A stretch of 55,740 nucleotides of DNA from Candidatus Micrarchaeota archaeon. GTDB lineage: Archaea; Micrarchaeota; Micrarchaeia; Micrarchaeales; CABMGC01. Where the stretch lies: positions 1 to 55,740 of the forward strand of contig JAGDYB010000012.1 of NCBI GenBank assembly GCA_023270055.1. The letters run 5' to 3'. Of this stretch, positions 1 to 46,952 are shown piece after piece. A model generated the notes under the pieces. It was not told where the DNA came from, did not search any database, and saw only the letters and a program-made list of their open reading frames with translations. The position numbers were made by a program, and so were the translations under genes. Within the stretch, counting starts at the first letter, position 1; each line of letters starts with the position of its first letter.

Positions 1-81
1 GTTGCCGTCGAGAGGCCACCAGCCTATCAGACCCGCATTTGGTATCGGCAGCGCAGCTATGCCGCTCTGGTACAGCTGCTG
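1..81. repeat. Dispersed repeat (copy D, in a different gene, truncated by the window edge)
   Basis: 79/81 identical to 5685-5765. Confidence 0.95.
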
Positions 82-1686
82 CACCTGTTGTGGCAATAGG
101 GATTCGTTGTATATTTGCACATTAGCTATACTGCCATAATATGTGTAACCGTCGCTTCCGAGAATTATTGAGCTCACTGGCTGTATTACCGAGCTTACTG
201 ATCCGGACGAAATTTTGGTGCCGTTATAATATATGGTATAGTTGGTTGCGGTGTTCGAATTGTAGGCTGTGACAACTATGTTGCTCCACTTGTCAAAACT
301 TATTGCCACTGGCACAGACACGTCGTTGTGCGAGCCTGCATCTACGAATATATCATTTGCTGAATTGAAGCCAATGCGCCACGTTGCTTCTGGACTGCTA
401 TCGATTGGAAATTGATAGTTGTTATCGAACTTAGTTGGATAAAACCATACCGAAATAGTTAGTGCACTTGGCGCGGGATAGTTATGTGATATGGTTACAT
501 TGCTTCCTGTACCACTTATGTTCAGTGCTTTCCTATTGTAGTTTGAGAAAGTAAATATACCATCAGGCGAACTGCTCGTGAATATGGATTCTGAACGCGA
601 GAAGTAGCTTGGAGCAAATGGCGAAGCAAAATAATAGCCATTTGCTATGACATTTCTCAAGTCTTCGATGTTGATGGTTGCATATGCAGGACCATAAAGC
701 AATACCTTTTCGTAGCTTTTAAGGTAATTAATCACACCAGAACTGCTAGGATATACTAGATAGGGCACTGTTGGCGGCGCTGCCGTATTGTTTATCTGGT
801 AGGTAATAAGGCCGCCGTAGTTGTTGGCAGCTTTGCACGTGCCGTTTGTTATTGCAATTGCATTTGCAGTTACAAGTATAAGCAGCGAGTTGAACGGAGC
901 AGTATTAATTTGTGTAGGAATCTCGCTTGCAATGTTGCCACATGTTGTTCCTGCAGGCAGATCGTATACAATGCCGTACACAAAACTTGATGGGTTGCCC
1001 AGTTTGGCATAGCTGTTGCCTATCACGTTTGTCATGTTGCTCATGTTGCCGAATTTTATGTCCCTGATTATGCCCTGCTGTGCGTAGAATAGATCGGGCG
1101 TGCCGTTTAATGTAACGTTCACGTTGATAGGTATGGAATAATTATATATGCCAGAGGTTGAATTTATTTGCACATTTTCTATATATGACAGCGAGACTGA
1201 ATATGGATTTGCTTGATAGACGTCAGGCGTAGTCTCGCTTATATGAATCTCTGATGGTAAGGTAGGTATAAGGTTTTTTGCTTCTTGGTTGTATTTTGAA
1301 AGGGTAAAATTGCCCATGCTCGCCAGCAGCACGTTTGCCACGTTGGAATTTGACACATATGGAAGTGTGCCGTTTTCTATAAGGTATGACATATACTCGC
1401 TAAAATTTGCTATAAAATTACCTTGGCGCAATGAAGCATTGTATTCGTAATTTGTAAGGGTTGCTAATGCTTGGGCCAGGCTTGCCTTGGCAAAGGTGCT
1501 TGCTCCTGATTGAAGCAATCTGCCGTAGTTAATGCTTGAGGAAGAGGATACAAGCAGCTGTGAAAGGGAATTGTATGTAGTGTTTAGCACCACAAAGGAA
1601 AGCAGCTCGGCGAGCATAAGCATGAACATGACCAAAGTAAGTATAGTCATGAATAATCCTTTCTTGGACTTATTTCTCAGCGCCAT
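1..1686 (-). CDS. Pilin-like (class III signal peptide) LamG-domain surface protein, 3'-truncated by the window edge (at least 562 aa; absent from the ORF track)
   Basis: I translated both ends by hand. ATG at 1686 gives MALRNKSKKG|LFMTILTLVMFMLMLAELL..., and the same frame at base 1 reads ...GSIANVQIYNESLLPQQVQQLYQSGIAALPIPNAGLIGWWPLDGN, a LamG-type C-terminal motif. The start overlaps the stop of the upstream gene (1677-1679). Confidence 0.85.
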   Translation of the reverse strand, partial: MALRNKSKKGLFMTILTLVMFMLMLAELLSFVVLNTTYNSLSQLLVSSSSSINYGRLLQSGASTFAKASLAQALATLTNYEYNASLRQGNFIANFSEYMSYLIENGTLPYVSNSNVANVLLASMGNFTLSKYNQEAKNLIPTLPSEIHISETTPDVYQANPYSVSLSYIENVQINSTSGIYNYSIPINVNVTLNGTPDLFYAQQGIIRDIKFGNMSNMTNVIGNSYAKLGNPSSFVYGIVYDLPAGTTCGNIASEIPTQINTAPFNSLLILVTANAIAITNGTCKAANNYGGLITYQINNTAAPPTVPYLVYPSSSGVINYLKSYEKVLLYGPAYATINIEDLRNVIANGYYFASPFAPSYFSRSESIFTSSSPDGIFTFSNYNRKALNISGTGSNVTISHNYPAPSALTISVWFYPTKFDNNYQFPIDSSPEATWRIGFNSANDIFVDAGSHNDVSVPVAISFDKWSNIVVTAYNSNTATNYTIYYNGTKISSGSVSSVIQPVSSIILGSDGYTYYGSIANVQIYNESLLPQQVQQLYQSGIAALPIPNAGLIGWWPLDGN

Positions 1687-3812
1687 GATATAACACCTAT
1701 ATTATAGCTGCTTATTTTGCCGGTGGTAAGATTCAATACCGGCATATTAACAGAGGACCTGCTTACTATAAATGCGTTCGAGAGGCTAGTCGGATTATAA
1801 TTTATTGATGCAAACTTCACGTTTGTTGCATATGCTGGAATGAAGGGGTATATGTAGTTGTTAAAATCGCCAGATAATGGATACCATGCTGAAATATTCG
1901 CTAGAGGCGAGCCGCCGGCGCCGCTCAGGAACACCTCGAATGCCTGCTGTGCTGTCAGTGTGATGTTGTATACCTGCACGTTGCTTAAGTATCCTGAATA
2001 ATAATTGCTAGAAGACGGCACTGAGCCCACATATACTGGTTGTATGTATCTGGCTAGCACATTCTTCGGCTTAGCAACACTTGACACTAAATGGCCATTT
2101 ATATATATCGAAACTCTGCCATTGATGTAGCTGTATGTTGCTATTACGTTGGTCCATTTGTTTATCGACAGCGGCGCGTAAACAGTATAACCAGGGGCCG
2201 TTCCATTTACGGTAAACATTACGCGATATGGAGCGGTTGCATTTAATTTTTCCATTATATATGGGCAGCCCGGAGCAGTACATGGCTCACCCATTATTAT
2301 TGTATTATTGACCCATGCGTTTGGATATAACCATATTGACCAAGAATAGCCATCTGATTCAACCGAACTGCTATTGCTAAGGTTCAAATAGACATTGGTT
2401 CCGCTGAAACTGGCAAATTTTGTGTCTGGAGCCAGCGTATTGTTTATAAGAATAGAATAGTTATGCATCGGGTAAAATGTGTATGCGATTGCATCAGCAC
2501 AACTATTTTTTCCGTTAACGTACAGGTATGCAATGTTTTCAAGCGGAGAGGCACTGCTTGTTATTGGGCATGAACCATATGCAAGCAACTGGTTTCCTAC
2601 AACAACAAACAACTTGCCGTATGCAATTGAGAGGTGTGGTGATGGCGTGCCCGGCAGGTGCACAAACCACATTACTTTCCCGTTTGAAGCATTTTGCGCA
2701 AGCAAATAGTTGTTAGACCAGAGAGTGTATACCATGCCGCTTGATATTGCCGGTGTTGTATTTGTTATTGCAGTGCCTAGAAAAGATGGTGCTGAAAATG
2801 ACCACATCTCGTAGCCTGATGGTGATACTGCCAACACGTATGAAGAGCCTTGATAGACAAGCATGCTTCCATACTTTGAAACTCCCTCTATTGAGGAGCT
2901 TGTTGAAATAGAAAATGCGGAGGAGCCGTCAACATATGTGGCATTCGCATAAGACCCCTCGCCATAGGCAAACACATCCCCAAAGCTCACCAAATTAGAA
3001 ATTGGAGATGTTGAAGGTATTGATTTGGACCAAAGCTGTTTTCCCGTAACGCCTGTCCCTGTAATCACATCTATATTGTTTGAGGATGTTTTCAATACTA
3101 TCGAGCCAGCAAGTCCAGACAACGAAACTGGATTTGTGCCAGTGTTGTTTGACCATGCCATAGTGCCATTATCGGAGTAGTATGCAAACAGCCTCGTGTC
3201 TGCGCCGAAATATATTTTTCCGCCATATCCAAGCAACTGCGAAGTTATTGGAACTAGCGTTGTTATAGAATTCGTGGACCATACAACAGAGCCGAAAACT
3301 GGGTTTACTGCAGTGAGATTGGTAAGATTTGCAAATATCAGCAACCCAGAATATAGTATTGGGGAAGATTCAATATTCGTCTTTACATTTTTAGACCATG
3401 AAAGCGTGCCAGTAGTCGAGTTAAGAGCATATAAGGTGTTACCAGCAGCAAAGTATATTCTGCCGTATCCGGCAACTGCAGGGGAAGTTATTGCGGCCAC
3501 TGCAGTGTAATTAAAAGATATTATAGGGTAGAGAGGCCCGTGCTGGTTACCACCATTGTTATACGAATCTGACATAAACTGGCCCCAAGTTTCATTGGAC
3601 CCGGCAAGCTGATATTCCATGCTTTGGATAAGCGGATAATCAATAGTACCCATTTTTGACGAGGAAAGCGTACTGAGTATGTTGTATGCCTTGAAGCTTG
3701 TCGTAGAATATGCGGTAGGGGATATATAGTGGAAATATAGCAACAGCGATATGCTTATCGATGCTATTACCAGCGCGAATATTGCATCCAGAGTAAATAC
3801 TATCGCTTTCAT
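1677..3812 (-). CDS. Pilin-like surface protein with PQQ-type beta-propeller repeats and a C-terminal LamG domain
   Basis: N-terminus MKA|IVFTLD followed by a hydrophobic helix; repeated 'LYALNSTTGTLSWS / LFAYYSDNGTMAWS / LAQNASNGKVMW' propeller motifs; LamG motifs 'WSIWLYP', 'IYING', 'YSGYLSNVQVYN', 'AWYPL'. Confidence 0.85.
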   Translation of the reverse strand: MKAIVFTLDAIFALVIASISISLLLYFHYISPTAYSTTSFKAYNILSTLSSSKMGTIDYPLIQSMEYQLAGSNETWGQFMSDSYNNGGNQHGPLYPIISFNYTAVAAITSPAVAGYGRIYFAAGNTLYALNSTTGTLSWSKNVKTNIESSPILYSGLLIFANLTNLTAVNPVFGSVVWSTNSITTLVPITSQLLGYGGKIYFGADTRLFAYYSDNGTMAWSNNTGTNPVSLSGLAGSIVLKTSSNNIDVITGTGVTGKQLWSKSIPSTSPISNLVSFGDVFAYGEGSYANATYVDGSSAFSISTSSSIEGVSKYGSMLVYQGSSYVLAVSPSGYEMWSFSAPSFLGTAITNTTPAISSGMVYTLWSNNYLLAQNASNGKVMWFVHLPGTPSPHLSIAYGKLFVVVGNQLLAYGSCPITSSASPLENIAYLYVNGKNSCADAIAYTFYPMHNYSILINNTLAPDTKFASFSGTNVYLNLSNSSSVESDGYSWSIWLYPNAWVNNTIIMGEPCTAPGCPYIMEKLNATAPYRVMFTVNGTAPGYTVYAPLSINKWTNVIATYSYINGRVSIYINGHLVSSVAKPKNVLARYIQPVYVGSVPSSSNYYSGYLSNVQVYNITLTAQQAFEVFLSGAGGSPLANISAWYPLSGDFNNYIYPFIPAYATNVKFASINYNPTSLSNAFIVSRSSVNMPVLNLTTGKISSYNIGVISWR

Positions 3813-3816
3813 ACTA

Positions 3817-4359
3817 TTAACCTATCCCAAACGAAGTGTTGGTCCATACATATACTTGCATCACCGCACTCTCGTTGCCGATTATTACAGGCTCGTTTAA
3901 AATATTTATGTCTGTTGCGTTATTTGTATTTGGCTTAAACCCTATTGGAATGTTAAACCCGTTGCCTTTTATTGAGACATAATAATCATAGCTTATGCCT
4001 AAAAGCTGCTTTGTGCTTTGATATGATATGTAGTTTGCAGTCATTGCAGATAGTGCCATGACTTTTTCTTGCGACAACACATCAGTATTGTTTCCCACAC
4101 CTATGCCTATCGAAACTATATTATTCCATGTTGCTGGATTTGAAATGTTTATTTGTGTTTCCCAGTTTGATGGATTGCCGGGGGATAAAAGTTGCTGACC
4201 AAGCCTATTTGCCTGCACTTGAATTATCTCTGTTCCAGAACTTGAAGTCAAAGAAAGCTGGTTGTTTACACTGAACCATACATACGCGAGTATTATTATT
4301 GCAAATGAGAAGATAATCATGGCAAATATTACGTCAAAAGACCAAAATTGCGCTTTCAT
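3817..4359 (-). CDS. Type IV pilin-like protein (class III signal peptide)
   Basis: MKA|QFWSFD plus a hydrophobic stretch; 'SPGNPSNW' motif seen in archaeal minor pilin-like proteins; the ATG at 4359 forms an ATGA overlap with the upstream stop. Confidence 0.8.
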   Translation of the reverse strand: MKAQFWSFDVIFAMIIFSFAIIILAYVWFSVNNQLSLTSSSGTEIIQVQANRLGQQLLSPGNPSNWETQINISNPATWNNIVSIGIGVGNNTDVLSQEKVMALSAMTANYISYQSTKQLLGISYDYYVSIKGNGFNIPIGFKPNTNNATDINILNEPVIIGNESAVMQVYVWTNTSFGIG

Positions 4360-7300
4360 GACAACCAACTCAGCGGTATTGTTATGCTTGATGCCTTAGG
4401 CATGCCGCTATCGAACAATTGCGTAACCTGCGTCTGATTCAATGGTGCGTTGTATATCTGCACATTCGAAATAGAGCCATTGAATATGAATCCGTTTGTA
4501 TCGGATTGCGAACTCCCTATTCTTAAATCCTGCGTATATGAATAGGTATTTGTAAATGGATAAGGCCCGTACTTGGTCCCGTCAACATAAAGAGTCGCAT
4601 TTGACCCTATTTTATTTACCGCTACTACATTTATCCACTGCTTTTCTGGAATTATTGGACCTGTGCCGATGTTTGCAACTGTAGATTCGGCCCATTCTAA
4701 ATTGCACGGACCACTTACTGGCGCAACGTAAAAAGTGTAGCTGTCAGATCCGTGGCCCACTATTGCTGCGCCGCTCGCCCCGTTTGCAAAGCATTGATTG
4801 ACATTTATCCATGCTGATATTGTAATGGTATTGCTGCTGCTAAATTGAAGATCAGAAGGATTGCTAAGATCTATATAGCTGTTCTGACCATTGAACATTA
4901 CCCCCGACTCGTTTAGCGATTGCAGCAAGTATGGCTTGACGCCCATAATATTGTTGAATACCACATTTGCAACTGTAGCATTATTCCCGTTGCCGCTGTA
5001 ATCGTTCGCGTTGCCGTCGAGAGGCCACCATGCACTGAGATTTGAGTTTGGTAATGGAAGACCAGATATACCGCTGGTATATATGCTCTCTACCTGGCCT
5101 GGCGTAAGCTTTCTATTGTAGAGCTGTATGTTGACTATAGAGCCATTGAAAGGGCTTATGCTTGCGGCAGACTCGCCTATTGAGAGCGCATTCAGGGAAT
5201 ATGGACCATTCACTATGCTGACGTTGTATGGAACACCAGAATTTGCATAAAAACTAGCAGTTCCGTTAGCAAGAGTAACAGCCACAAAATTCCATTCCGA
5301 GCCATTTATCCCATAGCCATGATAGCTGTTTGAACCTACCCCTATTTCTTCGTCACCGCTGCCTGGCGATGCACCTAGGCTCCCACCATTGTTAAGCCAA
5401 AATTCGAAGTTTTTTGAACCAGAAGAATTGAAAATAGTATAGCCATTGCCACTTACCATTTTCAATGTGTTTGCGCCGTTGACCCAGAAAGTCATGGTAA
5501 AGTTATTTGTTGTTATGTTTCTGTACGTCTTGAATGCGCTTGACACTCCGTTAAATTTGGCGGAAAACATGCTCGACATGCTGCCATTCAATGCAAGCGA
5601 TTTGCTTATCACCTTACTTGTTGGGGCAAACGCAAGATTGCCTACTATTGTACCATTGTCGCCCGCACCGCTGTAATCGTTCGCGTTGCCGTCGAGAGGC
5701 CACCAGCCTATCAGACCTGCATTTGGTATCGGCAGCGCAGCTATGCCGCCCTGGTACAGCTGCTGTATTTGAGATGGCGAAAGAACGGTATTGTATATTT
5801 GCATATTTGCAATATCTCCCTTGAAGTAACCTCCAGTAGTTTGCGCTGGATTCGAACCGCTTATGATTATTGGTGATCCACCTCCTGGTATAATGCTTGA
5901 TGTTGCAGTTGCTACCTCGCTTCCACCGTTTATGTAAAGCTTTATAATACCTGTCGATGGAGAGTAAGTGCCTGTGAGCATGTACCACTGCCCTAGTTCT
6001 GGGAAAGCATTTGTAATTGTTGGGGTTGCATATGATCCTGAAACTGTGTTGCCAACATAAAAATTGAGCTGATTGTTATCTCTGAATTCAAACCACCACA
6101 TTCCAGTATAGCCGTGGCCTGCAATTACGCTCGAATAGCCGTTTGTGTCAGGCGTTGACACATGGTCTCCAGCATTGCCATATAAAAGCGGCCTAACCCA
6201 TAGGTTGACCGTGAATGTTGTTGAATTTAGTGCAGCCGTTGGCTGTATCTGAATTTGACTGTTGTTGCCGTTGAATCTGGAGACATACTTGGGAAAATTC
6301 CAGTAAGGTTGGCCGTTCATTGCGCCGTTGTTGCCGTTGCCGCTAATGTCGTAAACTGCGTTGCCTGTGCCAAAATCAAGCGGATACCAAGCCACAACGT
6401 TGCTTTCTATCGGAGATACGAAGTTAAATGCGGCCGCTTTCACATCCGCATAGCCGCTTGCGTTTTGTTGTGTAAGCAGCACAGAAGCTATACCATTTGA
6501 ATCAGTGTAAGCAGCGGCACTTTGGCCGCTTCCCAAGCCATTTGAAAATGTGCCAAGGTCAGTCGCAAATCCAACCAGGGCATTCTTAAGTGGCGTGCCG
6601 TACTGATTCAGCACTTGCGCGGTAATTTGAGCCACGGTAGGAAATATTATTGGCCCACTTATTGCACCATTGTCGCCCGCACCGCTGTAATCGTTCGCGT
6701 TGCCGTCGAGAGGCCACCAGCCAACAAGGTTTCGAGGAACTATTGGAGTTCCATTAATACCCTCTTGATAGAGAGCTTGTATTTGATTTGCTGAAAGCGC
6801 AGTGTTGTATATTTGAACGTCCGCTAAATCCCCTGATATCGGATTGCATCCTGGACCGCTAGATGCTATATTTGAACCACTTATTCTGATTGTTGGAGGT
6901 GTAGTAAAAGCAGTTGCGCCACTTATTGCCACTGGCGTGCCTATTTGCTTACCATTATAATAAACATTGATATATGTTGAATTTGCCACCCCTACAAACA
7001 TTTGCCATTTGTATGGCACTAAAGGTTGCCCTGGAAAATCTCTCACATTATCAGCGGTCCAAGACTCAGTTGGAGGATTGCCCCCGGATTCTATGAAAAA
7101 GTTGTATCCTGTGCCACTTCCACCACCTGTGCATGCAGTTGAAGGATATACACTTACAGCATTCTCCCAGTAGTTTCCGCTTGCGCCCCAATATGGTGAT
7201 GGAATAGGGTATATCCAAAATGCTACAGTGACTTGCGGCCCGTTGAAGCTATAAGCGCTGGAAGCTGGCGCTTCTATGTAAGTATTTTCACCGTTGAACT

Positions 7301-7808
7301 GAGCCGCGTGTGTCACCTTCGACGAAAGCGCTATGCTGCCTACGAGATTTGTGGTGTTAGGGCAATTGTAATCCACGCAAATGTTGCCCTGCGAATTCTG
7401 CAGAGATATCGTTCCATTGGAGATTGGTAGTATGTAGGTGCTTGGCGCCGAAGACAGGCTGAAAGACGGATTTGAAACTATGTTCGTGTTGCTGTATGCA
7501 AGCGCTTGTATTATCTGCTTGCCTACTGTTGCCGACACTATCACCTCGCCGCTCTTTGTTATTGTCACATTGTACTGAGCATTGCCTATAGAGCTTACCA
7601 TTGGGATCGTAGACCTGAAGCCATTTCCTGCCCGGTACGCACTACTTATCTGCGAGGCTATGTTCTGCGCGATGAGCTGAAGCTGCGAGAACATCTGGCT
7701 GTTTATGCTTACTGCACGCTCGCTAGATATCAAAGCGAACATGAAAACGAACACTAAAAGTACGAATGCGAGGACTATCATGAATTCCAGTGACAACTGC
7801 AGCTTCAT
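4356..7808 (-). CDS. Large pilin-like adhesin with four LamG domains and one Ig-like (invasin/Big-1-like) domain
   Basis: MKL|QLSLEF plus a hydrophobic helix; four 'FNG..S / W(I/V).P / G.I.NVQIYN..L...Q...L(Y/F)' LamG units, three ending in WWPLDGNANDYSG; Ig-like segment 'ITAQVLNQYGTPLKNALVGF...YTDSNGIASVLL'. Confidence 0.88.
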   Translation of the reverse strand: MKLQLSLEFMIVLAFVLLVFVFMFALISSERAVSINSQMFSQLQLIAQNIASQISSAYRAGNGFRSTIPMVSSIGNAQYNVTITKSGEVIVSATVGKQIIQALAYSNTNIVSNPSFSLSSAPSTYILPISNGTISLQNSQGNICVDYNCPNTTNLVGSIALSSKVTHAAQFNGENTYIEAPASSAYSFNGPQVTVAFWIYPIPSPYWGASGNYWENAVSVYPSTACTGGGSGTGYNFFIESGGNPPTESWTADNVRDFPGQPLVPYKWQMFVGVANSTYINVYYNGKQIGTPVAISGATAFTTPPTIRISGSNIASSGPGCNPISGDLADVQIYNTALSANQIQALYQEGINGTPIVPRNLVGWWPLDGNANDYSGAGDNGAISGPIIFPTVAQITAQVLNQYGTPLKNALVGFATDLGTFSNGLGSGQSAAAYTDSNGIASVLLTQQNASGYADVKAAAFNFVSPIESNVVAWYPLDFGTGNAVYDISGNGNNGAMNGQPYWNFPKYVSRFNGNNSQIQIQPTAALNSTTFTVNLWVRPLLYGNAGDHVSTPDTNGYSSVIAGHGYTGMWWFEFRDNNQLNFYVGNTVSGSYATPTITNAFPELGQWYMLTGTYSPSTGIIKLYINGGSEVATATSSIIPGGGSPIIISGSNPAQTTGGYFKGDIANMQIYNTVLSPSQIQQLYQGGIAALPIPNAGLIGWWPLDGNANDYSGAGDNGTIVGNLAFAPTSKVISKSLALNGSMSSMFSAKFNGVSSAFKTYRNITTNNFTMTFWVNGANTLKMVSGNGYTIFNSSGSKNFEFWLNNGGSLGASPGSGDEEIGVGSNSYHGYGINGSEWNFVAVTLANGTASFYANSGVPYNVSIVNGPYSLNALSIGESAASISPFNGSIVNIQLYNRKLTPGQVESIYTSGISGLPLPNSNLSAWWPLDGNANDYSGNGNNATVANVVFNNIMGVKPYLLQSLNESGVMFNGQNSYIDLSNPSDLQFSSSNTITISAWINVNQCFANGASGAAIVGHGSDSYTFYVAPVSGPCNLEWAESTVANIGTGPIIPEKQWINVVAVNKIGSNATLYVDGTKYGPYPFTNTYSYTQDLRIGSSQSDTNGFIFNGSISNVQIYNAPLNQTQVTQLFDSGMPKASSITIPLSWLS
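4993..5030. repeat. 38-bp dispersed repeat (copy A) encoding WWPLDGNANDYSG
   Basis: ccgctgtaatcgttcgcgttgccgtcgagaggccacca is identical at 4993-5030, 5668-5705 and 6682-6719; its last 21 bp also occur at 1-21. Confidence 0.97.
5652..5765. repeat. Dispersed repeat (copy B, extended)
   Basis: 5652-5708 is identical to 6666-6722 (57 bp). 5685-5765 matches 1-81 with 2 mismatches in 81 bp. Confidence 0.97.
6666..6722. repeat. Dispersed repeat (copy C)
   Basis: 57-bp exact match to 5652-5708. Confidence 0.97.
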
Positions 7809-7815
7809 AAAATCA

Positions 7816-8286
7816 TTATACAGCAGGGGTTATGTATACGCACGGCACCGGTTTCTGGTGCGGGCAAGCTGAATATGCTGTTTCGTTCACCAGATATGTA
7901 CCTGGAGCTATTATGCCCCCCAACACCCCGCTAACATTAACAGGTGAATAAGCAGTGACATAGCTTAGACCCGTCGGAGAACGCACTTCGAAGATTATTT
8001 GATGACCTACTCCGTTTGAAGCGTTACCGACATATATGTATTGTACGCCAGGAGGCATCTCTATTTGTATTATCTGCTTTGCCATCGGTCCCTCACTGCC
8101 TACTACGGTCGCAACACTCGCAAGCTTCGACGCCGCCTGCTGCGCCTCTATCGAGGAAAGCGTCGAGCTCGCCGTTGCCATTTGTATAAACGCCAACACC
8201 ACTATAGGAAGCAGTATTGCTAGACCGAATGACAGCGTTATCAGCAGCTCGAAGCTCGATTGGAGCTTTGAGTTACGCATTTTCAT
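7816..8286 (-). CDS. Small type IV pilin-like protein (class III signal peptide)
   Basis: MKMRNSKL|QSSFEL plus a hydrophobic helix; 'V..EG' motif resembling archaeal DUF361/UPF0333-like pilins; C-terminal Cys pair. Confidence 0.8.
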   Translation of the reverse strand: MKMRNSKLQSSFELLITLSFGLAILLPIVVLAFIQMATASSTLSSIEAQQAASKLASVATVVGSEGPMAKQIIQIEMPPGVQYIYVGNASNGVGHQIIFEVRSPTGLSYVTAYSPVNVSGVLGGIIAPGTYLVNETAYSACPHQKPVPCVYITPAV

Positions 8287-9406
8287 TCTTCTCCTCCTTC
8301 CTGTATGTTAAAATTATTTCTTTGCTGTTTTTTATGTTATCGTAAAGCTTTTTAATTACGTCGCTTAAAGCCTCGTCAAGTAGATGGGCCGAGGCGGTGG
8401 CAAGTATGTTGTTGCGCTTTTCTATTACAACGCGTGCCCTTATCTCGTAGTTTTTGCCGTGCTTGACATGAACATATATTTTGTCAATTTTCAAATGGTT
8501 GAACCGGCCCACCTTTTCAGAGAATTTTGACAGCTCCGAGCTTATCTCGTCCCTGTACTCAGCGATGTTCTCATCTACACCTGAAACCATTATGTTACCT
8601 TCCTCAGCTGGTACGCTTGCCACAACCATCTCGAAAAGATCGCGCATAGCCAAAACGCCAACAGGCCTATCGCCCTTGGTGACTACAAGGAAATTAGTCT
8701 TGTTTTCAAGTATTTGCCTTATAGCATTCTCTACAGATTCTCCATAATCGATCGTAGGTATGTCTTTATCGCAGGCGTCGCCAACCGTAACTGTGTTAAG
8801 CTTGTTCTCGTTCCGGTTGATTTTTGGTGCTGTGCGCAAGTTGGTCTTGGCAAAGTTCTGTATTATGCTGTCGTAAGATATTACACCATAGGTCTTGCCG
8901 CCGTTCAGCACGACAAGCCGGTCTATTTTGTATTCGCTCATCACGCTTTTAGCCTGTGCCACCGAAGCGTTCTTGTCGATTGCCACTACCGGCGAGCTCA
9001 TTGCCTCCTGCACTTTTGTACCAGACAGTAGGTGCAAAGAGAGTATAGAGCTCAGCATTGTCTCTCTCTTTATGCCACCCTTTATCTTGTTTTCTTCTAT
9101 AAATGGCAGAACGCGAGCGGAATGCTGATAAAAGTACAACACGGCATTCTCTATTGATACTTGGCTGTTCAAGGACGGCAGTTTCCTAACAAGCTTTTCT
9201 ACCTTTAATGAAGGTGGAAATTTCATCGTGCCCTTCTGCGACAGCGCTACATCGTCAACCATGCCGAAATATTCTCTGTTTTTTGTAACTATTACAGCAC
9301 CTTTGTCCTTTATCTTTGCAAGTACTTCTACTGCAGGGGTTTTTGCTTCTACAATTGGTATGTATGTGACAAAGTCCGCGGGCACAGGTCCAAGCGCTCT
9401 CTCCAT
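8273..9406 (-). CDS. CBS-domain protein (4 CBS) with a C-terminal HPF/RaiA-like domain; probable ribosome hibernation factor
   Basis: CBS motifs (KVQEAMSSPVVAID...GVIS; TVGDAC...GVLAMRDL); the C-terminal ~95 aa have an HPF-like beta-alpha-beta-beta-beta-alpha pattern (KIYVHVK..YEIRARV..ATASAHLLDEALSDVIKKLYDNI). Start moved to the ATG at 9406 because the longer ORF runs into tRNA-Cys. Confidence 0.75.
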   Translation of the reverse strand: MERALGPVPADFVTYIPIVEAKTPAVEVLAKIKDKGAVIVTKNREYFGMVDDVALSQKGTMKFPPSLKVEKLVRKLPSLNSQVSIENAVLYFYQHSARVLPFIEENKIKGGIKRETMLSSILSLHLLSGTKVQEAMSSPVVAIDKNASVAQAKSVMSEYKIDRLVVLNGGKTYGVISYDSIIQNFAKTNLRTAPKINRNENKLNTVTVGDACDKDIPTIDYGESVENAIRQILENKTNFLVVTKGDRPVGVLAMRDLFEMVVASVPAEEGNIMVSGVDENIAEYRDEISSELSKFSEKVGRFNHLKIDKIYVHVKHGKNYEIRARVVIEKRNNILATASAHLLDEALSDVIKKLYDNIKNSKEIILTYRKEEKNENA

Positions 9407-9443
9407 ATAATCACTGGTTATATTTACATTATCAGCATAAATA

Positions 9444-9451
9444 TTTATATA
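9444..9451 (+). promoter_or_regulatory. TATA box of tRNA-Cys (divergent promoter region)
   Basis: TTTATATA about 26 nt upstream of the tRNA 5' end. Confidence 0.55.
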
Positions 9452-9476
9452 AGATATTAAAACAAACATAAGTGAA

Positions 9477-9563
9477 GCCAGGTTGGCAGATCGGCTATGC
9501 AGCCGCCTGCAGAGCGGCGTAGGGGGGTTCGACACATCTATTGCGAAATTCCCTCCCCTGGCT
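9477..9563 (+). tRNA. tRNA-Cys(GCA) with a 16-nt intron at 59/60 (9534-9549)
   Basis: Acceptor GCCAGGT/CCCTGGC with U73; anticodon arm GCCGC-CTGCAGA-GCGGC (GCA at 9509-9511); T stem GGGGG/CCCTC; BHB motif with central helix TTCG/CGAA and bulges AC|A and AT|T. Splicing restores the loop TTCGACT. Confidence 0.92.
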
Positions 9564-9595: not shown

Positions 9596-11017
9596 GTGAA
9601 GAAAAGATATACTGAATATTTTTATTTACTTGCACTGCTCCTCGTAATGCTGATTGCTGTACATTTTTATTTAGAATCTGACGTTGGTATTGTGGTAAAT
9701 TTCGATGACGCGTTTTATGCGGCATCAATAGTAAATCAGGTGTTCTATCTGAAAATGATACCGTGGGGCGCGGCTTCGTTTGGCTTCGCTGCACTCGGCA
9801 GAATTTTCTACGTACTCACTGGCAACCTTTTTACGGCGACTACAGCAATGCCAATAACCGCCATAATGCTAACAATGATTACACTCTATATTATTGGGAA
9901 AAAATATGGCGGGGGGCTTGCGGGCCTGAGCTCCGCAGTGCTCTTCGCGTTTAACCCGCTGGTTTACGCCTATTCCATACGGCTTTTGCCTGACATATTC
10001 ATCACAATGCTACTTTCATTTGCAATTCTGATCACTGTATATGCAGAAAGAAAAAGCTATGGCTACTTTATCGGCGGAATTGTTGCAGGGCTTGGCGTTT
10101 TTTTCGGCTTACAGGTATTTTTGTCGTTGCTGGCTTATTTTGCCCTTGTCGCATCGCTTGTCTACGTTGAAAAATTAAAAGGAAAGACAAAGAAGATATT
10201 TTGCGCTTTTATCGGCATGGCGCTTGCAATAACGTTATTCCTTCTGTTTCAGGACATGATATACGGAAACCCGCTTTTTGCAATAAATGGGATGGAAACG
10301 TTTAATTCTGAATATATGTCTGCGCCGCCGCATAATAACTATTATTTCAATGTTCTATTCCCAGAAAGCCATGTAGGATATCTACCTGGAAGCGGAAGCG
10401 AACCATACTCCACACTGGGCATGTTATCAATTGTCTTTATAGGGGCAAACGTTGCGTTGCTATACAAGAAAAGGTTCAACATTGTTCCGTATACCTTCTC
10501 ATCGATAGCATTTGTCTTATATGTTCTTTTCGGCACACAAAGCATCAGCATGTACTATCCAATATTACATATGAATAGGCTGCTTATGCCAATAGTGCTA
10601 CTATTTTCAATTGGTAGCGGAATGTCCGCAGGGCTGGCAAAAAGTAGAGTACACGCTGTAGCTGCAATCGCGTTTTTGGCATTTTATGTGTTTGTCTCCT
10701 TCCAATACTACACATATGCTGCAAGGTATTATGACTTCACAAACAGAAATCCATATTTGGCAACGGAACAGGTGAGCAATTACCTTAACACAATGGACCT
10801 AAAAGGTTATTCTATACATGAGAACGTCACTGAACTTCCTATACTGCTGTGCGCCTCGCTGAAAACAAGCCCTGTTGTTTGCAATGGTGGCCCAGGGCCA
10901 GTAGAAGGTATAAACTGCACAGAAAACAATACAATCTTTTTGCTTGACGTACCATATTGTGGCAGCACTTACATATTTTCAAACAAGAGCCTTGGCTATT
11001 ACATCTACAAGAACTAG
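9596..11017 (+). CDS. GT-C superfamily membrane glycosyltransferase (PMT/ArnT-like)
   Basis: Polytopic membrane protein; acidic 'FDDAFY' in the first loop; 'FNPL..YS.RLLPD' and a late 'R.LMP' motif. Confidence 0.75.
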   Translation: MKKRYTEYFYLLALLLVMLIAVHFYLESDVGIVVNFDDAFYAASIVNQVFYLKMIPWGAASFGFAALGRIFYVLTGNLFTATTAMPITAIMLTMITLYIIGKKYGGGLAGLSSAVLFAFNPLVYAYSIRLLPDIFITMLLSFAILITVYAERKSYGYFIGGIVAGLGVFFGLQVFLSLLAYFALVASLVYVEKLKGKTKKIFCAFIGMALAITLFLLFQDMIYGNPLFAINGMETFNSEYMSAPPHNNYYFNVLFPESHVGYLPGSGSEPYSTLGMLSIVFIGANVALLYKKRFNIVPYTFSSIAFVLYVLFGTQSISMYYPILHMNRLLMPIVLLFSIGSGMSAGLAKSRVHAVAAIAFLAFYVFVSFQYYTYAARYYDFTNRNPYLATEQVSNYLNTMDLKGYSIHENVTELPILLCASLKTSPVVCNGGPGPVEGINCTENNTIFLLDVPYCGSTYIFSNKSLGYYIYKN

Positions 11018-11596: not shown

Positions 11597-13096
11597 ATGA
11601 AGAAAATTAGGAGTCATGGGCTGTTAGTGCTGTTCATCGCAACACTCATAATGCTGATAAACCCTCTGCGCATTACAAGCTTTAGCATACTTGACACAGA
11701 CCCTTCTACATACATAATAGTGCCTATGCTAATGCTACTTATGTTCATCTTGTTCAAAGGTAAGGAGGTTATTCAGACTAAAAGCGGAAAGTATGATATT
11801 GCTTTGGGCATTGTGCTTTTTGCGATTTTTGTGCTTAGCTGGTTTTACCTCAAATACTTTCTCTCATATAAGTTCATAAGTTACAGAATTGACATGCTAC
11901 TGTTTCCAATTGCCATTGCTGCGTTAATAATTATAATCTTTGGACATGAAGGGATAAGGCGATTTAGAGGCATGCTATTTTATGCACTGTTTGCTTCGCC
12001 ACTGCTATTGCTGCCCGTATTTGGAATAAACATGCAATTTGCACAGTTCAACACGTTTTTAGTATACGAAGTGTTGCATTTGTTTTACCAACAGGTTACC
12101 TATTCAGCGCCGCTTTCTTTGACTTACGCAGGGAGCTCAATAGGCATTGGCGAATCGTGCGCGGGAATTGGAGCGCTCATAGGAATAATAATGTTTCTTA
12201 TACCGCTCGCATACTTCTATGATGGAAGGGTCATCAACAAGGTGTATTGGGTAATTTCAGGGTTTGTGCTGTTTCTTCTGCTTAATGTAGCTAGGATGGT
12301 CAGCATTACTGCGATGTGGCTCATATATGGCGAGCGAGCAACCGCTTCGTATATACATACATTCGTAGGAATCTGGCTATTTTACATAACGATAATAGTC
12401 ATGATTTTAATTGCGTATAAATACGGGCTTATGTTCCCGAAAGTAAAGAAGCGTAAAGCTTTTGTCACGAAAGTTGAATGGGGGATTTATGCTTTGGCAC
12501 TGCTACTTGCAGCTTCATATTTCTTCATCTCCGCGGGTTATGTCAACTCACTTTATATATCCCCTATGATTTTAAACAATGTGACATTCTCAACCAACAG
12601 CAGCGCGTTTGGAAGCTATATCAACTGGTTAATGCATTCGCCATTCCGTTCGGGTCTTGAGGCAAGAACTGCGGATGGCGCAGTGCTCACGTTTTCAAAC
12701 AAGACGTTCAATGTGACAGACCCAATCGTGCTGATGCTCGTTGGCAACATGAGCATAATCACAAGCAACGATATAATCGGAAGCTATACGTTCGCACAGA
12801 ATAGCGGTATAAATCTCAGATTGTACAGCGTAGTATCGAACAATACAATTTTTTATGTTGGCTATGCAAAACAGCCTCTAGTGGCCCAGAATGGCATAGA
12901 TTTGGCGCGCGAGTTCATAGTAATGCCAGCTTCGGCAGGAACGCTAAACCTCAGCTGCGGCGGCTACAGCACACTGTATAGCTATGTGTTCAGCACATTC
13001 GACAACACTCATGCAAATGCAACCGAAATGAAAAAGATAGAGAGTGCATACTGCGTGACCAGGCATATACTAGCCTGGCAGACCACACAGACATAA
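11597..13096 (+). CDS. Exosortase/archaeosortase family protein with a C-terminal extracytoplasmic extension
   Basis: Multiple TM helices; catalytic triad motifs 'IGESCAGI' (Cys), 'LNVARM' (Arg) and 'YIHTFVG' (His). Confidence 0.85.
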   Translation: MKKIRSHGLLVLFIATLIMLINPLRITSFSILDTDPSTYIIVPMLMLLMFILFKGKEVIQTKSGKYDIALGIVLFAIFVLSWFYLKYFLSYKFISYRIDMLLFPIAIAALIIIIFGHEGIRRFRGMLFYALFASPLLLLPVFGINMQFAQFNTFLVYEVLHLFYQQVTYSAPLSLTYAGSSIGIGESCAGIGALIGIIMFLIPLAYFYDGRVINKVYWVISGFVLFLLLNVARMVSITAMWLIYGERATASYIHTFVGIWLFYITIIVMILIAYKYGLMFPKVKKRKAFVTKVEWGIYALALLLAASYFFISAGYVNSLYISPMILNNVTFSTNSSAFGSYINWLMHSPFRSGLEARTADGAVLTFSNKTFNVTDPIVLMLVGNMSIITSNDIIGSYTFAQNSGINLRLYSVVSNNTIFYVGYAKQPLVAQNGIDLAREFIVMPASAGTLNLSCGGYSTLYSYVFSTFDNTHANATEMKKIESAYCVTRHILAWQTTQT

Positions 13097-23858: not shown

Positions 23859-24572
23859 TTAATCTGCAAGCACATCAAAGCCCTTCGACGTTATCTGGTA
23901 CGGAACACTCGAAATTCTATGTGCTGAGTTGCGCAACTTTGCTATTTCTATTGCATACTGTGAAGAGCCAGCAGACTGATTAACGGAAAGCTTTATCAAG
24001 CCGTCGAACATCGAGGTGCCGAACAAGCCAGCCTCTGTCACGTCAAGCTTGGGGCTCACTTCAACGGTTATGAATGCAGTCAAGCCTGCCTCCCTGAACA
24101 CTTCTGACATATATGTTGAAGATCTGGTGAACGTTCTGTCGTCTATCATCACTGCCCTTAAGCTGCTCAATGAATCAAAGACGAGAATCTTTGATTTGTT
24201 AGCATTCACCGTAGCTATCACGTCGGCTATGAATTTTTCGAAGTTTTCCCTTGACTTGAAGTCTTCGAGTATGGGCTTGTGCACTATCTGTATTACGTTT
24301 CTTTCAAGTAGCTCCTCAAAGTCTTCAAAAGCGTAAAAAGCGTTTTCCACATTGTCTATAAGTGACTCACGCATCTCCTCTGTTGTTATGAATGTGCTTG
24401 GTATTTCGAGTTTTGCGTTGTGGTACAGCATCTCAAGCGATAGTAGGGTTTTTCCAGCACCAGGGCTACCTATTACAAGCACCTGCGATCCTACAGGAAC
24501 GCCACCGGAAATCATCCTGTCAAGTCCAGCAACGCCAGTTTTTATACGCTTTATTATTCCTTGATTTTCCAT
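23859..24572 (-). CDS. Single-domain KaiC-like (RAD55 family) ATPase
   Basis: 'IKTGVAGLD..I.GG', Walker A GSPGAGKT, 'TEE', Walker B 'VFDS', 'TSMFDG', 'KLRNS.H'. Start 24572 (24587 also possible). Confidence 0.9.
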   Translation of the reverse strand: MENQGIIKRIKTGVAGLDRMISGGVPVGSQVLVIGSPGAGKTLLSLEMLYHNAKLEIPSTFITTEEMRESLIDNVENAFYAFEDFEELLERNVIQIVHKPILEDFKSRENFEKFIADVIATVNANKSKILVFDSLSSLRAVMIDDRTFTRSSTYMSEVFREAGLTAFITVEVSPKLDVTEAGLFGTSMFDGLIKLSVNQSAGSSQYAIEIAKLRNSAHRISSVPYQITSKGFDVLAD

Positions 24573-24589
24573 ATTAATTACCCGCAAAA

Positions 24590-25339
24590 TTAAACATCAT
24601 TTATATCTTCCCCATGCGGCAGTTCAAGCACGCTTATGCCAGAAGAGGTTATCTCGTATGGTATTGTGCTGAAGCTGTGTGCAGTGCCTCTCATTTTTAT
24701 TATTTCTAGTGTCTGTATCCTATTGCTTCCTTCTCCAGACAAGTAGAGTGCTATTATACCATCGTACATGAAAAATTCTGGTTGAAAAGTCAGTTTCTCC
24801 TTTTCCGCTGTTTCAAGCTCAACTGTTATAAGTGTGGTCGCATTAAGACGCTTGAGCACGCGGACGAGGTTCATTGTTGTGTCTCTGTATTCAAACTGGT
24901 CTCTTATTAGCAATCTGACTACGCTTATAGAATCTATAACGATACGTGTTGCGTGATATTGCGATGCTACCGACTCCAAATTTGAGATCCACTCGCCAAA
25001 AGAGTATGTGCCTTTATCTGGATCCCTTGTCACATATGCAGTGCCTTCCTCAGAGCCGTATACCACAAGCTTCTTGCTTGCTATTAGATCGTCTATGTCT
25101 GTGAAATCAGTAAATGCGGCCTTAGCGTTTTCGATTACCATATTTGATGTTTCCTCAAGCGAGAACAGAATGCCGTTATTGCCTTCCTTGGCATTATGGT
25201 AGAGATATTCAAAACCCAGCAGAGTTTTCCCAGTACCAGGGCCTCCTGCGATGGCGACCTGATTTCCTTCTGGTATACCGCCATCAATCATCTTGTCTAG
25301 ATTTTTTATGCCGAGCTTTACACGAGAACGCATTTCCAA
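24590..25339 (-). CDS. Single-domain KaiC-like (RAD55 family) ATPase
   Basis: 'GIKNLD..I.GGIP', Walker A GGPGTGKT, 'LEE', Walker B 'IVIDS', 'YDGII', 'KMRGT.H'. Confidence 0.92.
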   Translation of the reverse strand: MEMRSRVKLGIKNLDKMIDGGIPEGNQVAIAGGPGTGKTLLGFEYLYHNAKEGNNGILFSLEETSNMVIENAKAAFTDFTDIDDLIASKKLVVYGSEEGTAYVTRDPDKGTYSFGEWISNLESVASQYHATRIVIDSISVVRLLIRDQFEYRDTTMNLVRVLKRLNATTLITVELETAEKEKLTFQPEFFMYDGIIALYLSGEGSNRIQTLEIIKMRGTAHSFSTIPYEITSSGISVLELPHGEDINDV

Positions 25340-45226: not shown

Positions 45227-46507
45227 TCACGGCTCTACCCTGTTTATGACCCTTGGAAACGGTATTGCGTCGCGTATGTGATCAAGGTTTAACAGCCATT
45301 TTATGACGCGCTCCATGCCCATGCCAAAGCCGGCATGAGGCACACTGCCGTATCTTCTAAGGTCAATGTACCATTTGTAGTTCTCAGTGTTAAGGCCAAA
45401 CATTTTCATCTTTTCTAGAAGCTCATCAAGCTTCCATATCCTTTCGCTGCCGCCTATTATCTCGCCGTGGCCGTGCGGAGCAAGCATGTCAGCGCACTTG
45501 ACCGTCCTAGGATCCTTTGGATCGTCGGGCATGTAAAAAGCTTTTATCTCCCTCGGCCAATGATGCACGAATATCGGTTTTTTCTGATCCTCCGTAAGCA
45601 GGCGCTCTTCTTCAACCCCGAAATCGTCGCCCCATTTGAGTTTCGAGCCTTTCTCGTTCAGTATCTCTATCGCCTTCTCGTAGGTTATTCTGGGAAATGG
45701 CGGCCTTATATCAAGCAGTGTTGACGGTTCTATGTTGAAAAACTTAATCAAATCTTCGTGCTCCTTGGCAAGCTTTCTCGCAATGCTGCTCACCAGCTTT
45801 TCCTGAAATTTCATGTTGTCATCAAGATCAAAATATGCCGCTTCCGGCTCGAGGTGCCAGTATTCGGCGAGATGCTTCACCGTCCTAGATTTTTCCGCCC
45901 TGTAGGACGGCGCAAAAGAGTATACCTTTTCCAGCGAGTATACCATCGCTTCTGCATACAGCTGCGAAGATTCAGTCAAATACGCTTTTTCTCCGAAATA
46001 ATCAACCGCAAACAGGCTGGAGCCTGTCTCACCACCGGCTTTTGTTATCAAAGGTGGGGATATCTCGAAAAAGCCGTTTTTGTCCATGAATTCTCTAGCA
46101 TACCTGAATATGTACGCCCTTGCCATCATTATCTTCGTCATCTTCTGGCTCCTCAGCCAGAGATGCCTATAATCGAGAAGAAGCTCGGGGCTCTGGTATT
46201 CGGTTATCGGGAAAGGCTCCGACGCATGCACGAGTTTGAAGTTTTCCGCTTCAAGTTCAAATCCTGTAGGCGCTCGCTCGTCTTTTTTTACCATACCCTC
46301 AACTTCAATGCTTGATTCTATTGATGCGTCGTTTGCGGCCTTCCACGCCTGTTCGCTCACCTTGTCTTTTTTAATGGCCACCTGCATCGTTCCGGATCTG
46401 TCCCTTATGATTATGAATATTATGCCGCCGCTGCCCCTTTTCCTGTATACCCATCCCGCAAGTTCGTGCCGTTCGCCAACCTTGGCTTCGGCATCCTTGA
46501 CATACAT
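45227..46507 (-). CDS. asnS: Asparagine--tRNA ligase
   Basis: OB domain 'GWVYRKR..GG', 'RHLWLR', 'YLTESSQLY.E', motif 2 'YRAEKSRT..HLAEYW.LE.E', motif 3 'PHAGFGMGMER'. Confidence 0.92.
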   Translation of the reverse strand: MYVKDAEAKVGERHELAGWVYRKRGSGGIIFIIIRDRSGTMQVAIKKDKVSEQAWKAANDASIESSIEVEGMVKKDERAPTGFELEAENFKLVHASEPFPITEYQSPELLLDYRHLWLRSQKMTKIMMARAYIFRYAREFMDKNGFFEISPPLITKAGGETGSSLFAVDYFGEKAYLTESSQLYAEAMVYSLEKVYSFAPSYRAEKSRTVKHLAEYWHLEPEAAYFDLDDNMKFQEKLVSSIARKLAKEHEDLIKFFNIEPSTLLDIRPPFPRITYEKAIEILNEKGSKLKWGDDFGVEEERLLTEDQKKPIFVHHWPREIKAFYMPDDPKDPRTVKCADMLAPHGHGEIIGGSERIWKLDELLEKMKMFGLNTENYKWYIDLRRYGSVPHAGFGMGMERVIKWLLNLDHIRDAIPFPRVINRVEP

Positions 46508-46682
46508 AGAAACACCAATAATAAATAGGGATTAACAAATAAAAATGTGCCAGGCTTGCGAATGGTGCAAGAAATTCGCAATCAGACAGCTTTTGTACAA
46601 AGTCTATATAAAAGTTTAACACTTCTATTCTATTACTGGCTTGATAGCATTTGAATACTCGCAATAGATAGGTGGTGCTGAA

Positions 46683-46952
46683 TTGGAATATATAGACTTT
46701 GACAGATTGCTCAAGATATGCAGGCTTGAGCTTGAGCCTGATGAGAAGGAGAAGATGCAAAAGGGCATCGTTGAGGTGATTGCCTACTTTGACACACTCA
46801 ACTCTTTCAATGCCGAAGTTGAAGGTAGGGCTAGAAAGGAGGAAAAGCCTGGCGTGCTGCGCGAAGATGTGGTAAAGGAATTTGACGATGTTGACGGTCT
46901 GCTGAAGAACACGAAAACCTACAGATTTTATGTTGTTGGTCCGAAAATATGA
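46683..46952 (+). CDS. gatC: Asp/Glu-tRNA amidotransferase subunit C
   Basis: 'L.K.CRLEL...E', 'LRED.V', 'L.N'; directly upstream of gatA. Confidence 0.85.
   Translation: MEYIDFDRLLKICRLELEPDEKEKMQKGIVEVIAYFDTLNSFNAEVEGRARKEEKPGVLREDVVKEFDDVDGLLKNTKTYRFYVVGPKI

Follow-up and report, generated by a model that had tools for sequence, protein, structure and literature searches.

Letter-identical tails of divergent LamG modules in a conserved operon of Micrarchaeia and the case for short-tract gene conversion

Why should stretches of DNA be identical to the letter, synonymous positions included, at the ends of protein modules that otherwise have little sequence in common? The question is raised by one end of a 55,740-nucleotide (nt) stretch of DNA from a Candidatus Micrarchaeota archaeon, which we call the window; it is C1:1-55740 of the source genome G000 (766 kb in 19 contigs, C1-C19, 84% complete), and the related genomes with which it was compared are labelled G002-G039. 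All genes within positions 1-8286 lie on the minus strand, and P0005, P0001, P0004, P0003 and P0002 are a conserved operon of Micrarchaeia whose products are pilin-like proteins with a hydrophobic N-terminus. The repeated sequences, here called anchors, form the tails of laminin G (LamG) modules in these proteins. Comparison within and between genomes gives good support to the view that gene conversion or recombination over short tracts keeps the tail DNA letter-identical. We asked how far this identity extends, whether the module cores have also moved, and which other processes could leave such a pattern.

Extent of the identity between module tails

An earlier note on this DNA, made from its letters alone, had described a 38-nt sequence repeated at three sites, and the repeat is exact at 4993-5030, 5668-5705 and 6682-6719. 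These are its only copies in the window even when up to three mismatches are allowed, and none of 100 shuffled windows contained any match. The 38-mer, with G or C at 24 of its 38 bases, encodes WWPLDGNANDYSG on the minus strand in P0001 and spans all ten degenerate codons of the motif. Two of the copies agree further, at 62 of 63 positions between 5646-5708 and 6660-6722, with an exact core of 57 nt (5652-5708 = 6666-6722), again as the note had it. It was also right about a different gene, P0002, in which positions 1-81 match 5685-5765 at 79 of 81 positions, the mismatches lying solely at 34 and 66. Past position 81 the identity falls off (90% over 1-99 against 5685-5783). The contig itself begins inside this last copy, the first 21 nt of the 38-mer being the start of the window. 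The anchors of P0001 are called J1, J2 and J3 (Table 1), and two further ones, Ja and Jb, are added by L034, a separately assembled metagenome contig of 6534 nt and ~3.8x coverage which was found by using the anchor as a search pattern; a scan of metagenomes with one open position returned this single contig. L034 starts and stops in anchors and is 99.56% identical to window positions 5706..1, with 25 differences over 5706 nt.

The identity does not extend to the rest of the modules. When the six LamG modules of the locus were aligned, they were 24-37% identical as proteins, anchors included, which bears out the note's description of highly divergent cores. The synonymous positions of anchor and core, whose comparison the note had proposed as a check, behave differently. 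At columns with identical residues, W and M excluded, the same codon was used in 143 of 439 core columns (33%) and in 100 of 208 columns of the helix and linker ahead of the anchor, against 16/16, 11/13, 11/13 and three times 5/5 in the anchors of modules A, B, C and E. For the degenerate anchor copy of P0003 the corresponding values against the others were 3/6, 3/6, 3/6 and 1/3.

Is this identity a property of the motif or of the genome in which it is found? With a degenerate pattern the anchor peptide motif was detected in 20 of 41 genomes, G000 and G038 included (14/24 in family f1, 5/15 in f3 and 0/1 in f2). Among the 39-nt anchors of operon loci, synonymous differences averaged 5.68 between genomes (257 pairs) and 2.05 within them (19 pairs), the within-genome values being 0-3 in G000, 1-2 in G003, G009 and G005a, and 4-6 in G017, G002 and G035. 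Exact tracts at the anchor are 29-57 nt long within G000 (10 pairs), have a median of 15 nt and a maximum of 41 nt (G009) within other genomes (40 pairs), and between genomes have a median of 8.5 nt and a maximum of 34 nt, with 0 of 976 pairs reaching at least 38 nt in a set that omits the sister pair G002/G005a. The ends of the tracts differ from pair to pair: J1 and J2 share -3..+54, J2 and Ja share -12..+45 plus the 79/81 match further upstream, and the tracts measure 48 nt for J1/Ja, 38 nt for J3 and 29-38 nt for Jb. Dispersed paralogues in the same genome (on C4, C8, C19 and at the end of C1) have just 8-15 nt in common with the anchors. Because the tract end points are mosaic and sharing depends on proximity, gene conversion is indicated. 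The note's proposal of recombination or gene conversion through the anchors is thus strengthened by the synonymous identity confined to them, by the longer tracts within genomes and by the mosaic ends, as well as by one hybrid contig that is described below.

In 14 of 15 genomes the 13 anchor codons have a higher GC content at third codon positions (GC3) than the remainder of the genes to which they belong (mean 0.68 vs 0.48; 0.76 vs 0.42 in G000), which fits GC-biased repair at a recombination-prone site or codon selection. In G016, anchors identical over the 38-nt pattern are dispersed (C1:16-53, at the contig start, C1:197044-197081 and C5:19924-19961), and may be a second case of homogenised LamG tails.

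Anchors, folds and the movement of cores between slots

The earlier note had placed the repeats at module junctions. This wording now seems imprecise, as the anchor is apparently no neutral linker but part of the LamG module before it, whose C-terminal strand region it forms. In the strongly conserved module end, a helix with the sequence IYNxxLSxxQIxxLYxxGI is connected through a short linker to the strand WWPL(D/N)GNANDYSG. We modelled residues 474-960 of P0001 with AlphaFold2 from 21 aligned orthologues (mean predicted local distance difference test score, pLDDT, 74.5). The best structural matches of this model were PAPP-A (8d8o_B; Z 22.1, root-mean-square deviation, rmsd, 2.7, 199 residues aligned) and PTX3 (7zl1_A; Z 21.4, rmsd 2.2, 186 aligned). 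Taking first and last aligned residues only, these pentraxin/LamG matches (Z 21-22) span model residues 31 to 256-269, which takes in the anchor (~225-241) and two strands after it; the second domain was matched over residues 274-482. We assign the anchor to the preceding fold because the aligned ranges span it, because single-LamG proteins end in the motif, and because J1 precedes an Ig-like insert rather than a LamG core. Such a position in the fold would account for the strict conservation of the anchor as protein.

The single-LamG proteins just mentioned are pilin-like proteins of G000, complete on C8 and partial on C4, C19 and at the end of C1, which end in WWPLNGNANDYSG plus ~25 residues. 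This small family was located at G000:C8:~440-1270, C19:2-736, C4:2-829, C1:55835-56470 and C12:250-639, the C1 site lying just past the end of the window after a run of N at 55741-55750. Its members have divergent cores and shared ends, PNGPGTTQF.SL.GVC at the N-terminus and LYQEGIGGAP…WWPLNGNANDYSG…GSWYSGYTPP at the C-terminus. Four of the five sites reach a contig end or come to within a few hundred bases of one, and the C8 gene stops ~1.3 kb from the start of its contig, so that these small genes, too, appear to break the assembly.

Have whole cores also changed their places? When 122 module cores, taken with their anchors trimmed from G000 and 20 loci, were placed in a tree (IQ-TREE quick mode, LG+G4), they did not group by slot: 55 label changes were required against a minimum of 8, the mean of shuffled labels being 82.4. 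This is the per-domain phylogeny that the earlier note had suggested, and it places related modules in different slots. The starred clades that join slots are G007_P2B with G005b_P1A, G016_P2A with G020_P2B, G016_P1B with G020_P2A, G013_P1B with G008_P1D and G012_P1C, and G035_P1A with G024_P1D. At a core identity of at least 45%, 36 modules fell into 15 clusters, 10 of which span more than one slot, and an approximately unbiased (AU) test rejected the monophyly of all 21 slot-B modules (p = 0.00056). Cross-slot pairs are 40-62% identical in the core, and the scaffolds of the same genome pairs 24-55%, often lower; the G016/G020 cross-slot module, for instance, reaches 59% against 30-40% for the scaffold, and that of G035/G013, which belong to different families, 59% against 24-46%. 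That cores in different slots are closer than their scaffolds hints at exchange between lineages, or at uneven rates. Over family-level time, a movement of LamG cores between slots and between the genes of the operon is supported by these comparisons. The note's idea of cassette swapping stands to this extent; a dedicated or rapid mechanism is a different matter, to which we return below.

More questions are raised by run data. The locus is present in four runs; a single hot-spring sample accounts for three of them and a second study for the fourth. They were used as assembled Logan contigs with a depth of ~5, so single-run stretches without cover carry no meaning. Window positions 402..67 are fused to 5750..5525 in a contig of run X2 (565 nt, depth 5.32), which connects the end of module E of P0002 with anchor J2 and the start of module C of P0001. 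Neither piece contains a mismatch, and the stretch compatible with both is just 15 nt long, which puts the switch between positions 66 and 82. On L034 the normal continuation of P0002 is a different module from that in the hybrid. Logan contigs are presumably built on a 31-mer graph, and an overlap of 15 nt is shorter than such a graph needs. Is the hybrid a true crossover, in the form of a hybrid gene, a 5.7-kb duplication or an excised circle, or is it a longer conversion tract that was bridged wrongly? It is one or the other, and on either reading of this single, unreplicated contig recombination in the conserved tail is ongoing.

Explanations for the identical tails

Taken as a whole, the most satisfactory explanation, and one that we consider probable, is a conserved operon subject to short-patch conversion based in the module tails, together with a rarer exchange of modules. 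The tail would close the module's own beta-sandwich under strict protein-level constraint, and it recurs in phase as a direct repeat, at spacings of 0.7-1 kb and once more at a distance of 5 kb. Being constrained and recurring in phase, it may be the only stretch in which the paralogues are still similar enough as DNA to recombine homologously. Among neighbouring copies, gene conversion over short patches would erase synonymous differences and leave exact tracts of 29-57 nt with differing ends, and through rarer crossovers or longer tracts starting in the tail entire modules would be replaced, lost or duplicated with the frame intact. LamG cores would then, over family-level time, change slots on a scaffold of 4+1+2 modules that stays fixed. 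The recombination pathway, the passage of exchange through the anchors, and the origin of the pattern as a by-product of ordinary recombination rather than of a dedicated system are parts that we infer. Perhaps the tail is even a portable homology site by which Micrarchaeia re-assort ligand-binding modules among the seven slots and possibly exchange them between co-occurring lineages. We put this forward as a tentative idea that is rather doubtful at present; it fits because cross-slot pairs surpass their scaffolds in identity, because a hybrid P0002-P0001 molecule occurs in the source community and because anchor GC3 is raised. If it is true, the host or partner specificity of these DPANN symbionts would evolve by the swapping of modules on a fixed scaffold.

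Several observations weigh against conversion and exchange through the tails. The modules of G000 share their slots with their nearest relatives in G013, G015 and G019, and because they do so no recent swap is seen in this lineage besides the hybrid contig. That contig is a single k=31 one, seen at a depth of ~5 in one run, and an assembly chimera formed through a longer conversion tract of some strain would look alike. In old cross-slot pairs the similarity begins inside the core or shortly ahead of it, ~30-60 residues past the preceding anchor, and ends in the conserved tail. The 5' limit of these exchanges thus sits in the poorly conserved stretch after that anchor, and the limits of similarity give no support to the anchor as their 5' break point. 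Slots P1A, P2A and P3A have no upstream anchor, yet their module types are common with other slots. At the threshold of at least 45% identity, 86 of the 122 cores are singletons, so that the part of the module history that can be read is the smaller one. The reference genomes are mostly metagenome assemblies, in which mis-joins at anchors could mimic some of the slot changes. Lastly, the raised GC3 and codons partly common across genomes leave room for some selection at the codon level.

Could the anchors be maintained as recombination sites of a programmed, high-frequency cassette switch comparable to pilE/pilS or vlsE, which gives a population many combinations of adhesins? They are in phase, direct and identical over 38-57 nt, the genome has 13 Laminin_G_3 matches and several paralogues with variable cores and conserved ends near contig ends, cores are related across slots in the family, one contig is a hybrid, and contigs in all four runs stop at anchors, where there are many loose ends with other flanks. 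However, no silent promoterless store was seen; the complete small paralogue on C8 starts with a signal-like N-terminal segment of its own and ends in a stop codon, and the other anchor-bearing copies are parts of open frames cut by contig ends. Among the open reading frames (ORFs) of the window that were scanned there was neither a recombinase nor a reverse transcriptase family, in agreement with the earlier note, and none was found in the 84%-complete genome. L034 is colinear across J3 and Ja, and contigs of a ~93% strain (X4) are in the reference order but break at anchors, none bridging one. The modules of G000 keep the slots of their relatives, and the sole hybrid contig was found in one run out of four. 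We therefore regard programmed switching as unlikely, and the note's suggestion of a dedicated or rapid mechanism as going beyond the data. A diversity-generating retroelement was rejected, since no reverse transcriptase family occurs among the window ORFs scanned, PF00078 (RVT_1) has no match in the 84%-complete genome, and the variable parts are whole divergent domains and not adenine-specific point differences. If, on the other hand, selection on the nucleotide sequence, for preferred codons or for an RNA or DNA signal, kept the anchors identical without recombination, the raised GC3 and the recurrence of codons such as GGC, AAC, TAC and AGC across genomes would be expected. But each of the ten degenerate motif codons has more than one form across genomes, copies inside G017, G002 and G035 differ by 4-6 sites, the G000 tracts extend into variable residues (AGDNG) and, for one pair only, 60 nt upstream, and the dispersed G000 paralogues use other codons, all of which makes this possibility a decidedly unlikely one.

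It might also be asked whether the identical stretches were produced by assembly or consensus calling. The first base of the window falls within an anchor, contig ends are close to LamG genes, and coverage is low in both L034 and the Logan contigs. Against this, no letter differs between the two assemblies at J3, Ja and part of J2, nor at the discriminating positions 34 and 66. Logan contigs of three runs match the window with 0-5 differences per piece, and repeats of 38-57 nt are too short to collapse without losing the 0.7-1 kb between them. A collapsed assembly, which the earlier note had named among the things that could undo its case, was rejected on the independent agreement of L034 and the length of the repeats, and an artefact of any kind seems very improbable to us. 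It is least credible of all that the modules are recent tandem duplicates with very fast divergence of cores and anchors that have not yet diverged. They are indeed tandem and have a common fold. However, their cores are only 24-37% identical to each other and have closer same-slot relatives in another genus (P1C 60% and P1A 51% to G013); the modules must therefore predate the split of the genera, while the anchors are identical. Synonymous identity of the cores is at background (33%), and recent duplication was rejected as contradicted by the module tree. There the nearest cores to module A of P0001 are G013_P1A, G020_P1A and G035_P3A, and module C is in a clade with P1C of G013, G015 and G019 (99*).

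Short-patch conversion in the tails has parallels in other prokaryotes. Concerted evolution by gene conversion reportedly affects the duplicated mtrA of methanogens, and a survey is said to have found long-lasting concerted evolution in prokaryotes. As in those cases, paralogous segments are closer within a genome than between genomes, the tracts are short with variable ends, and no dedicated enzyme is needed. Unlike them, the homogenisation of LamG modules is confined to a tail of ~40-130 nt, the rest of the module remains 24-37% identical and the cores change slots. Cassette-based variation of surface proteins is known from Neisseria pilE/pilS, Borrelia vlsE and the MgPa repeats of Mycoplasma. 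The likeness lies in variable segments between stretches of conserved recombination homology, and in products that are surface or pilus proteins meeting a partner cell. The LamG copies differ in being parts of apparently complete genes whose architecture is stable between 99.6%-identical strains, and neither an expression site with silent copies nor evidence of a high switching frequency was found. The mechanism is of a known kind, recombination at the conserved borders of variable surface-protein modules, and the archaeal symbiont is a new case of it. Literature on recombination or module shuffling, or on nucleotide-identical tails, in DPANN LamG proteins was not found in our search, which did not cover subscription journals.

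The operon, its filament link and its surroundings

The layout of the operon is fixed at 4+1+2, that is, seven slots for LamG modules of pentraxin-like lectin fold in P0001, P0003 and P0002 (Table 1). Laminin_G_3 (PF13385; cut-off 27.6 bits) was matched above its cut-off by P0001 (E=1e-70, four stretches), P0002 (E=6.9e-15) and P0003 (E=2.2e-18). The Big_1 (PF02369) match of P0001 is weak (E=2.3e-5, under its cut-off), and a gap of about the size of this insert occurs at the same position in all P0001 orthologues. No Pfam match was obtained for P0004 and P0005. Four LamG matches lie at nearly the same positions in 16 of 18 family-f1 orthologues of P0001, the other two being cut by contig ends. 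Family-f1 orthologues of P0003 have one such match, and those of P0002, with 860-915 amino acids (aa), mostly have two modules. On L034 P0002 continues (5707-6534) with the full anchor Ja, a second LamG module, G, and anchor Jb. Jb shows two synonymous differences, and L034 ends there, before the 3' end of P0002. The N-terminal 165 aa of P0001 were detected in 36 of the 41 genomes, counted as above, and the gene order P0001-P0004-P0003-P0002 is kept in 13 of 20 fetched loci. The LamG genes of G000 near contig ends number five (on C1, C4, C8, C12 and C19), and LamG repeats fragment this assembly.

Are these proteins pilus adhesins that bind a host, as the earlier note assumed? All five have a charged N-terminus followed by ~20 hydrophobic residues, which may resemble the Q-x-S-x-E motif. 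Neither the five sequences nor their first 60 residues matched a pilin or class III signal model of Pfam or NCBIfam, even at E up to 10, and a Pfam scan of the five N-termini at this threshold returned chance-level matches only. In two contiguous relatives, G017 and G003, a gene for a T2SSE-type filament ATPase lies 3-3.5 kb past the last gene of the operon. A filament ATPase gene also stands beside the orthologue in G039 and ~10 kb off in G032. The G016 operon is at a contig end. In G000, where P0002 is cut by the end of its contig, the T2SSE-type ATPases are encoded elsewhere, on C7 and C12. The synteny in G017 and G003 suggests a tie between the LamG operon and a type IV filament locus, and the pilus link rests on hydrophobic N-terminal segments and on ATPase genes in relatives. 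The operon proteins would accordingly be candidates for filament-borne adhesins, and the host-binding part of the note's claim is a supposition. Lectin-bearing pilins and a LamG-tipped haloarchaeal fimbria are known, and have a similar combination of a filament-subunit-like N-terminus with a concanavalin/LamG-type module that is thought to bind ligands at the filament. Those pilins have one lectin module each, however, against four and an Ig-like insert in P0001, and TafC is a Tat-pathway protein. The match of P0001 to the NCBIfam model of TafC is confined to its LamG part (111.5 bits, cut-off 410).

Attachment to other archaea is the mode of life of DPANN archaea such as the Micrarchaeia, and in the recognition of the partner suspicion falls on LamG-like surface proteins. 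The present locus is a concrete and conserved candidate for this role, with its seven lectin-fold slots and, in relatives, its nearness to a filament ATPase. Its scaffold and module tails are constant, homogenised by recombination, and its cores are very diverse, with related cores in different slots. Two questions are thereby opened to testing, the ligands of the individual modules and a possible link between the host range and the set of modules present. LamG loci break metagenome assemblies and are therefore under-represented in metagenome-assembled genomes. An expansion of jelly-roll, LamG-like proteins has been described in the ARMAN/Micrarchaeota archaeon Mia14; they are abundant in DPANN, some lie at type IV pili loci, and a role in host interaction was proposed for them (PMC5498576). 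In the portions of that account considered here, neither a fixed multi-slot operon nor a tail motif, nucleotide-identical anchors or a reshuffling of modules is described (PMC5498576).

Table 1. Positions of the anchors, genes and modules of the LamG operon in the window, and of filament ATPase genes beyond the operon in two relatives
Feature	Position	Strand	Remarks
Anchor J1	6666..6722	-	57-nt tract identical to J2; 38-mer at 6682-6719
Anchor J2	5652..5708	-	57-nt tract identical to J1; 38-mer at 5668-5705; near-identity to the P0002 copy reaches 5765
Anchor J3	4993..5030	-	38-mer alone; flanks diverge immediately
Conserved tail and first 21 nt of anchor Ja, P0002	1..81	-	79/81 to 5685-5765; contig begins within the anchor; complete anchor on L034
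P0005	7816..8286	-	156 aa; small pilin-like; first gene of the operon
P0001	4356..7808	-	1150 aa; N-terminal domain (aa 1-~125), LamG modules A-D, one Big_1-like insert
P0004	3817..4368	-	183 aa; small pilin-like; kept in the operons of relatives
P0003	1677..3812	-	711 aa; N-terminal hydrophobic segment, PQQ-type beta-propeller, one LamG module with degenerate anchor WYPLSGDFNNY
P0002	1..1686	-	First 562 aa: N-terminal domain and LamG module E; cut by contig start
LamG module A of P0001	6666..7433	-	aa 126-381, including anchor J1; hidden Markov model (HMM) envelope
Big_1-like Ig insert of P0001	6435..6632	-	aa 393-458, between anchor J1 and module B
LamG module B of P0001	5652..6389	-	aa 474-719, including anchor J2; HMM envelope
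LamG module C of P0001	4977..5660	-	aa 717-944, including anchor J3; HMM envelope
LamG module D of P0001	4359..4985	-	aa 942-1150; protein end, without WWPL anchor
ATPase beyond operon in G017	G017:C1:348753-349337		Operon locus L048 = G017:C1:335900-346600
ATPase beyond operon in G003	G003:C3:337847-338428		Operon locus L049 = G003:C3:325200-335900

The remainder of the window encodes archaeal housekeeping proteins, among them fibrillarin, RtcB, archease and the CCA-adding enzyme. A few kb from the LamG operon lie an exosortase/archaeosortase-family membrane protein (11597-13096, plus strand; PF09721, E=1.2e-14) and a PMT_2-type glycosyltransferase (9596-11017, plus strand), which could process or glycosylate surface proteins. 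Directly upstream of the operon (8273-9535, minus strand) is a CBS-pair protein whose C-terminal part matches the ribosome-hibernation (S30AE) model with E=0.0022, under the cut-off. An adjacent pair of KaiC-family ATPase genes (242 and 249 aa) occupies 23859-25339 on the minus strand. At 45227-51336, gatC, gatA and gatB stand between two genes for class II tRNA synthetases of the D/K/N type, an arrangement consistent with the indirect formation of Asn- or Gln-tRNA.

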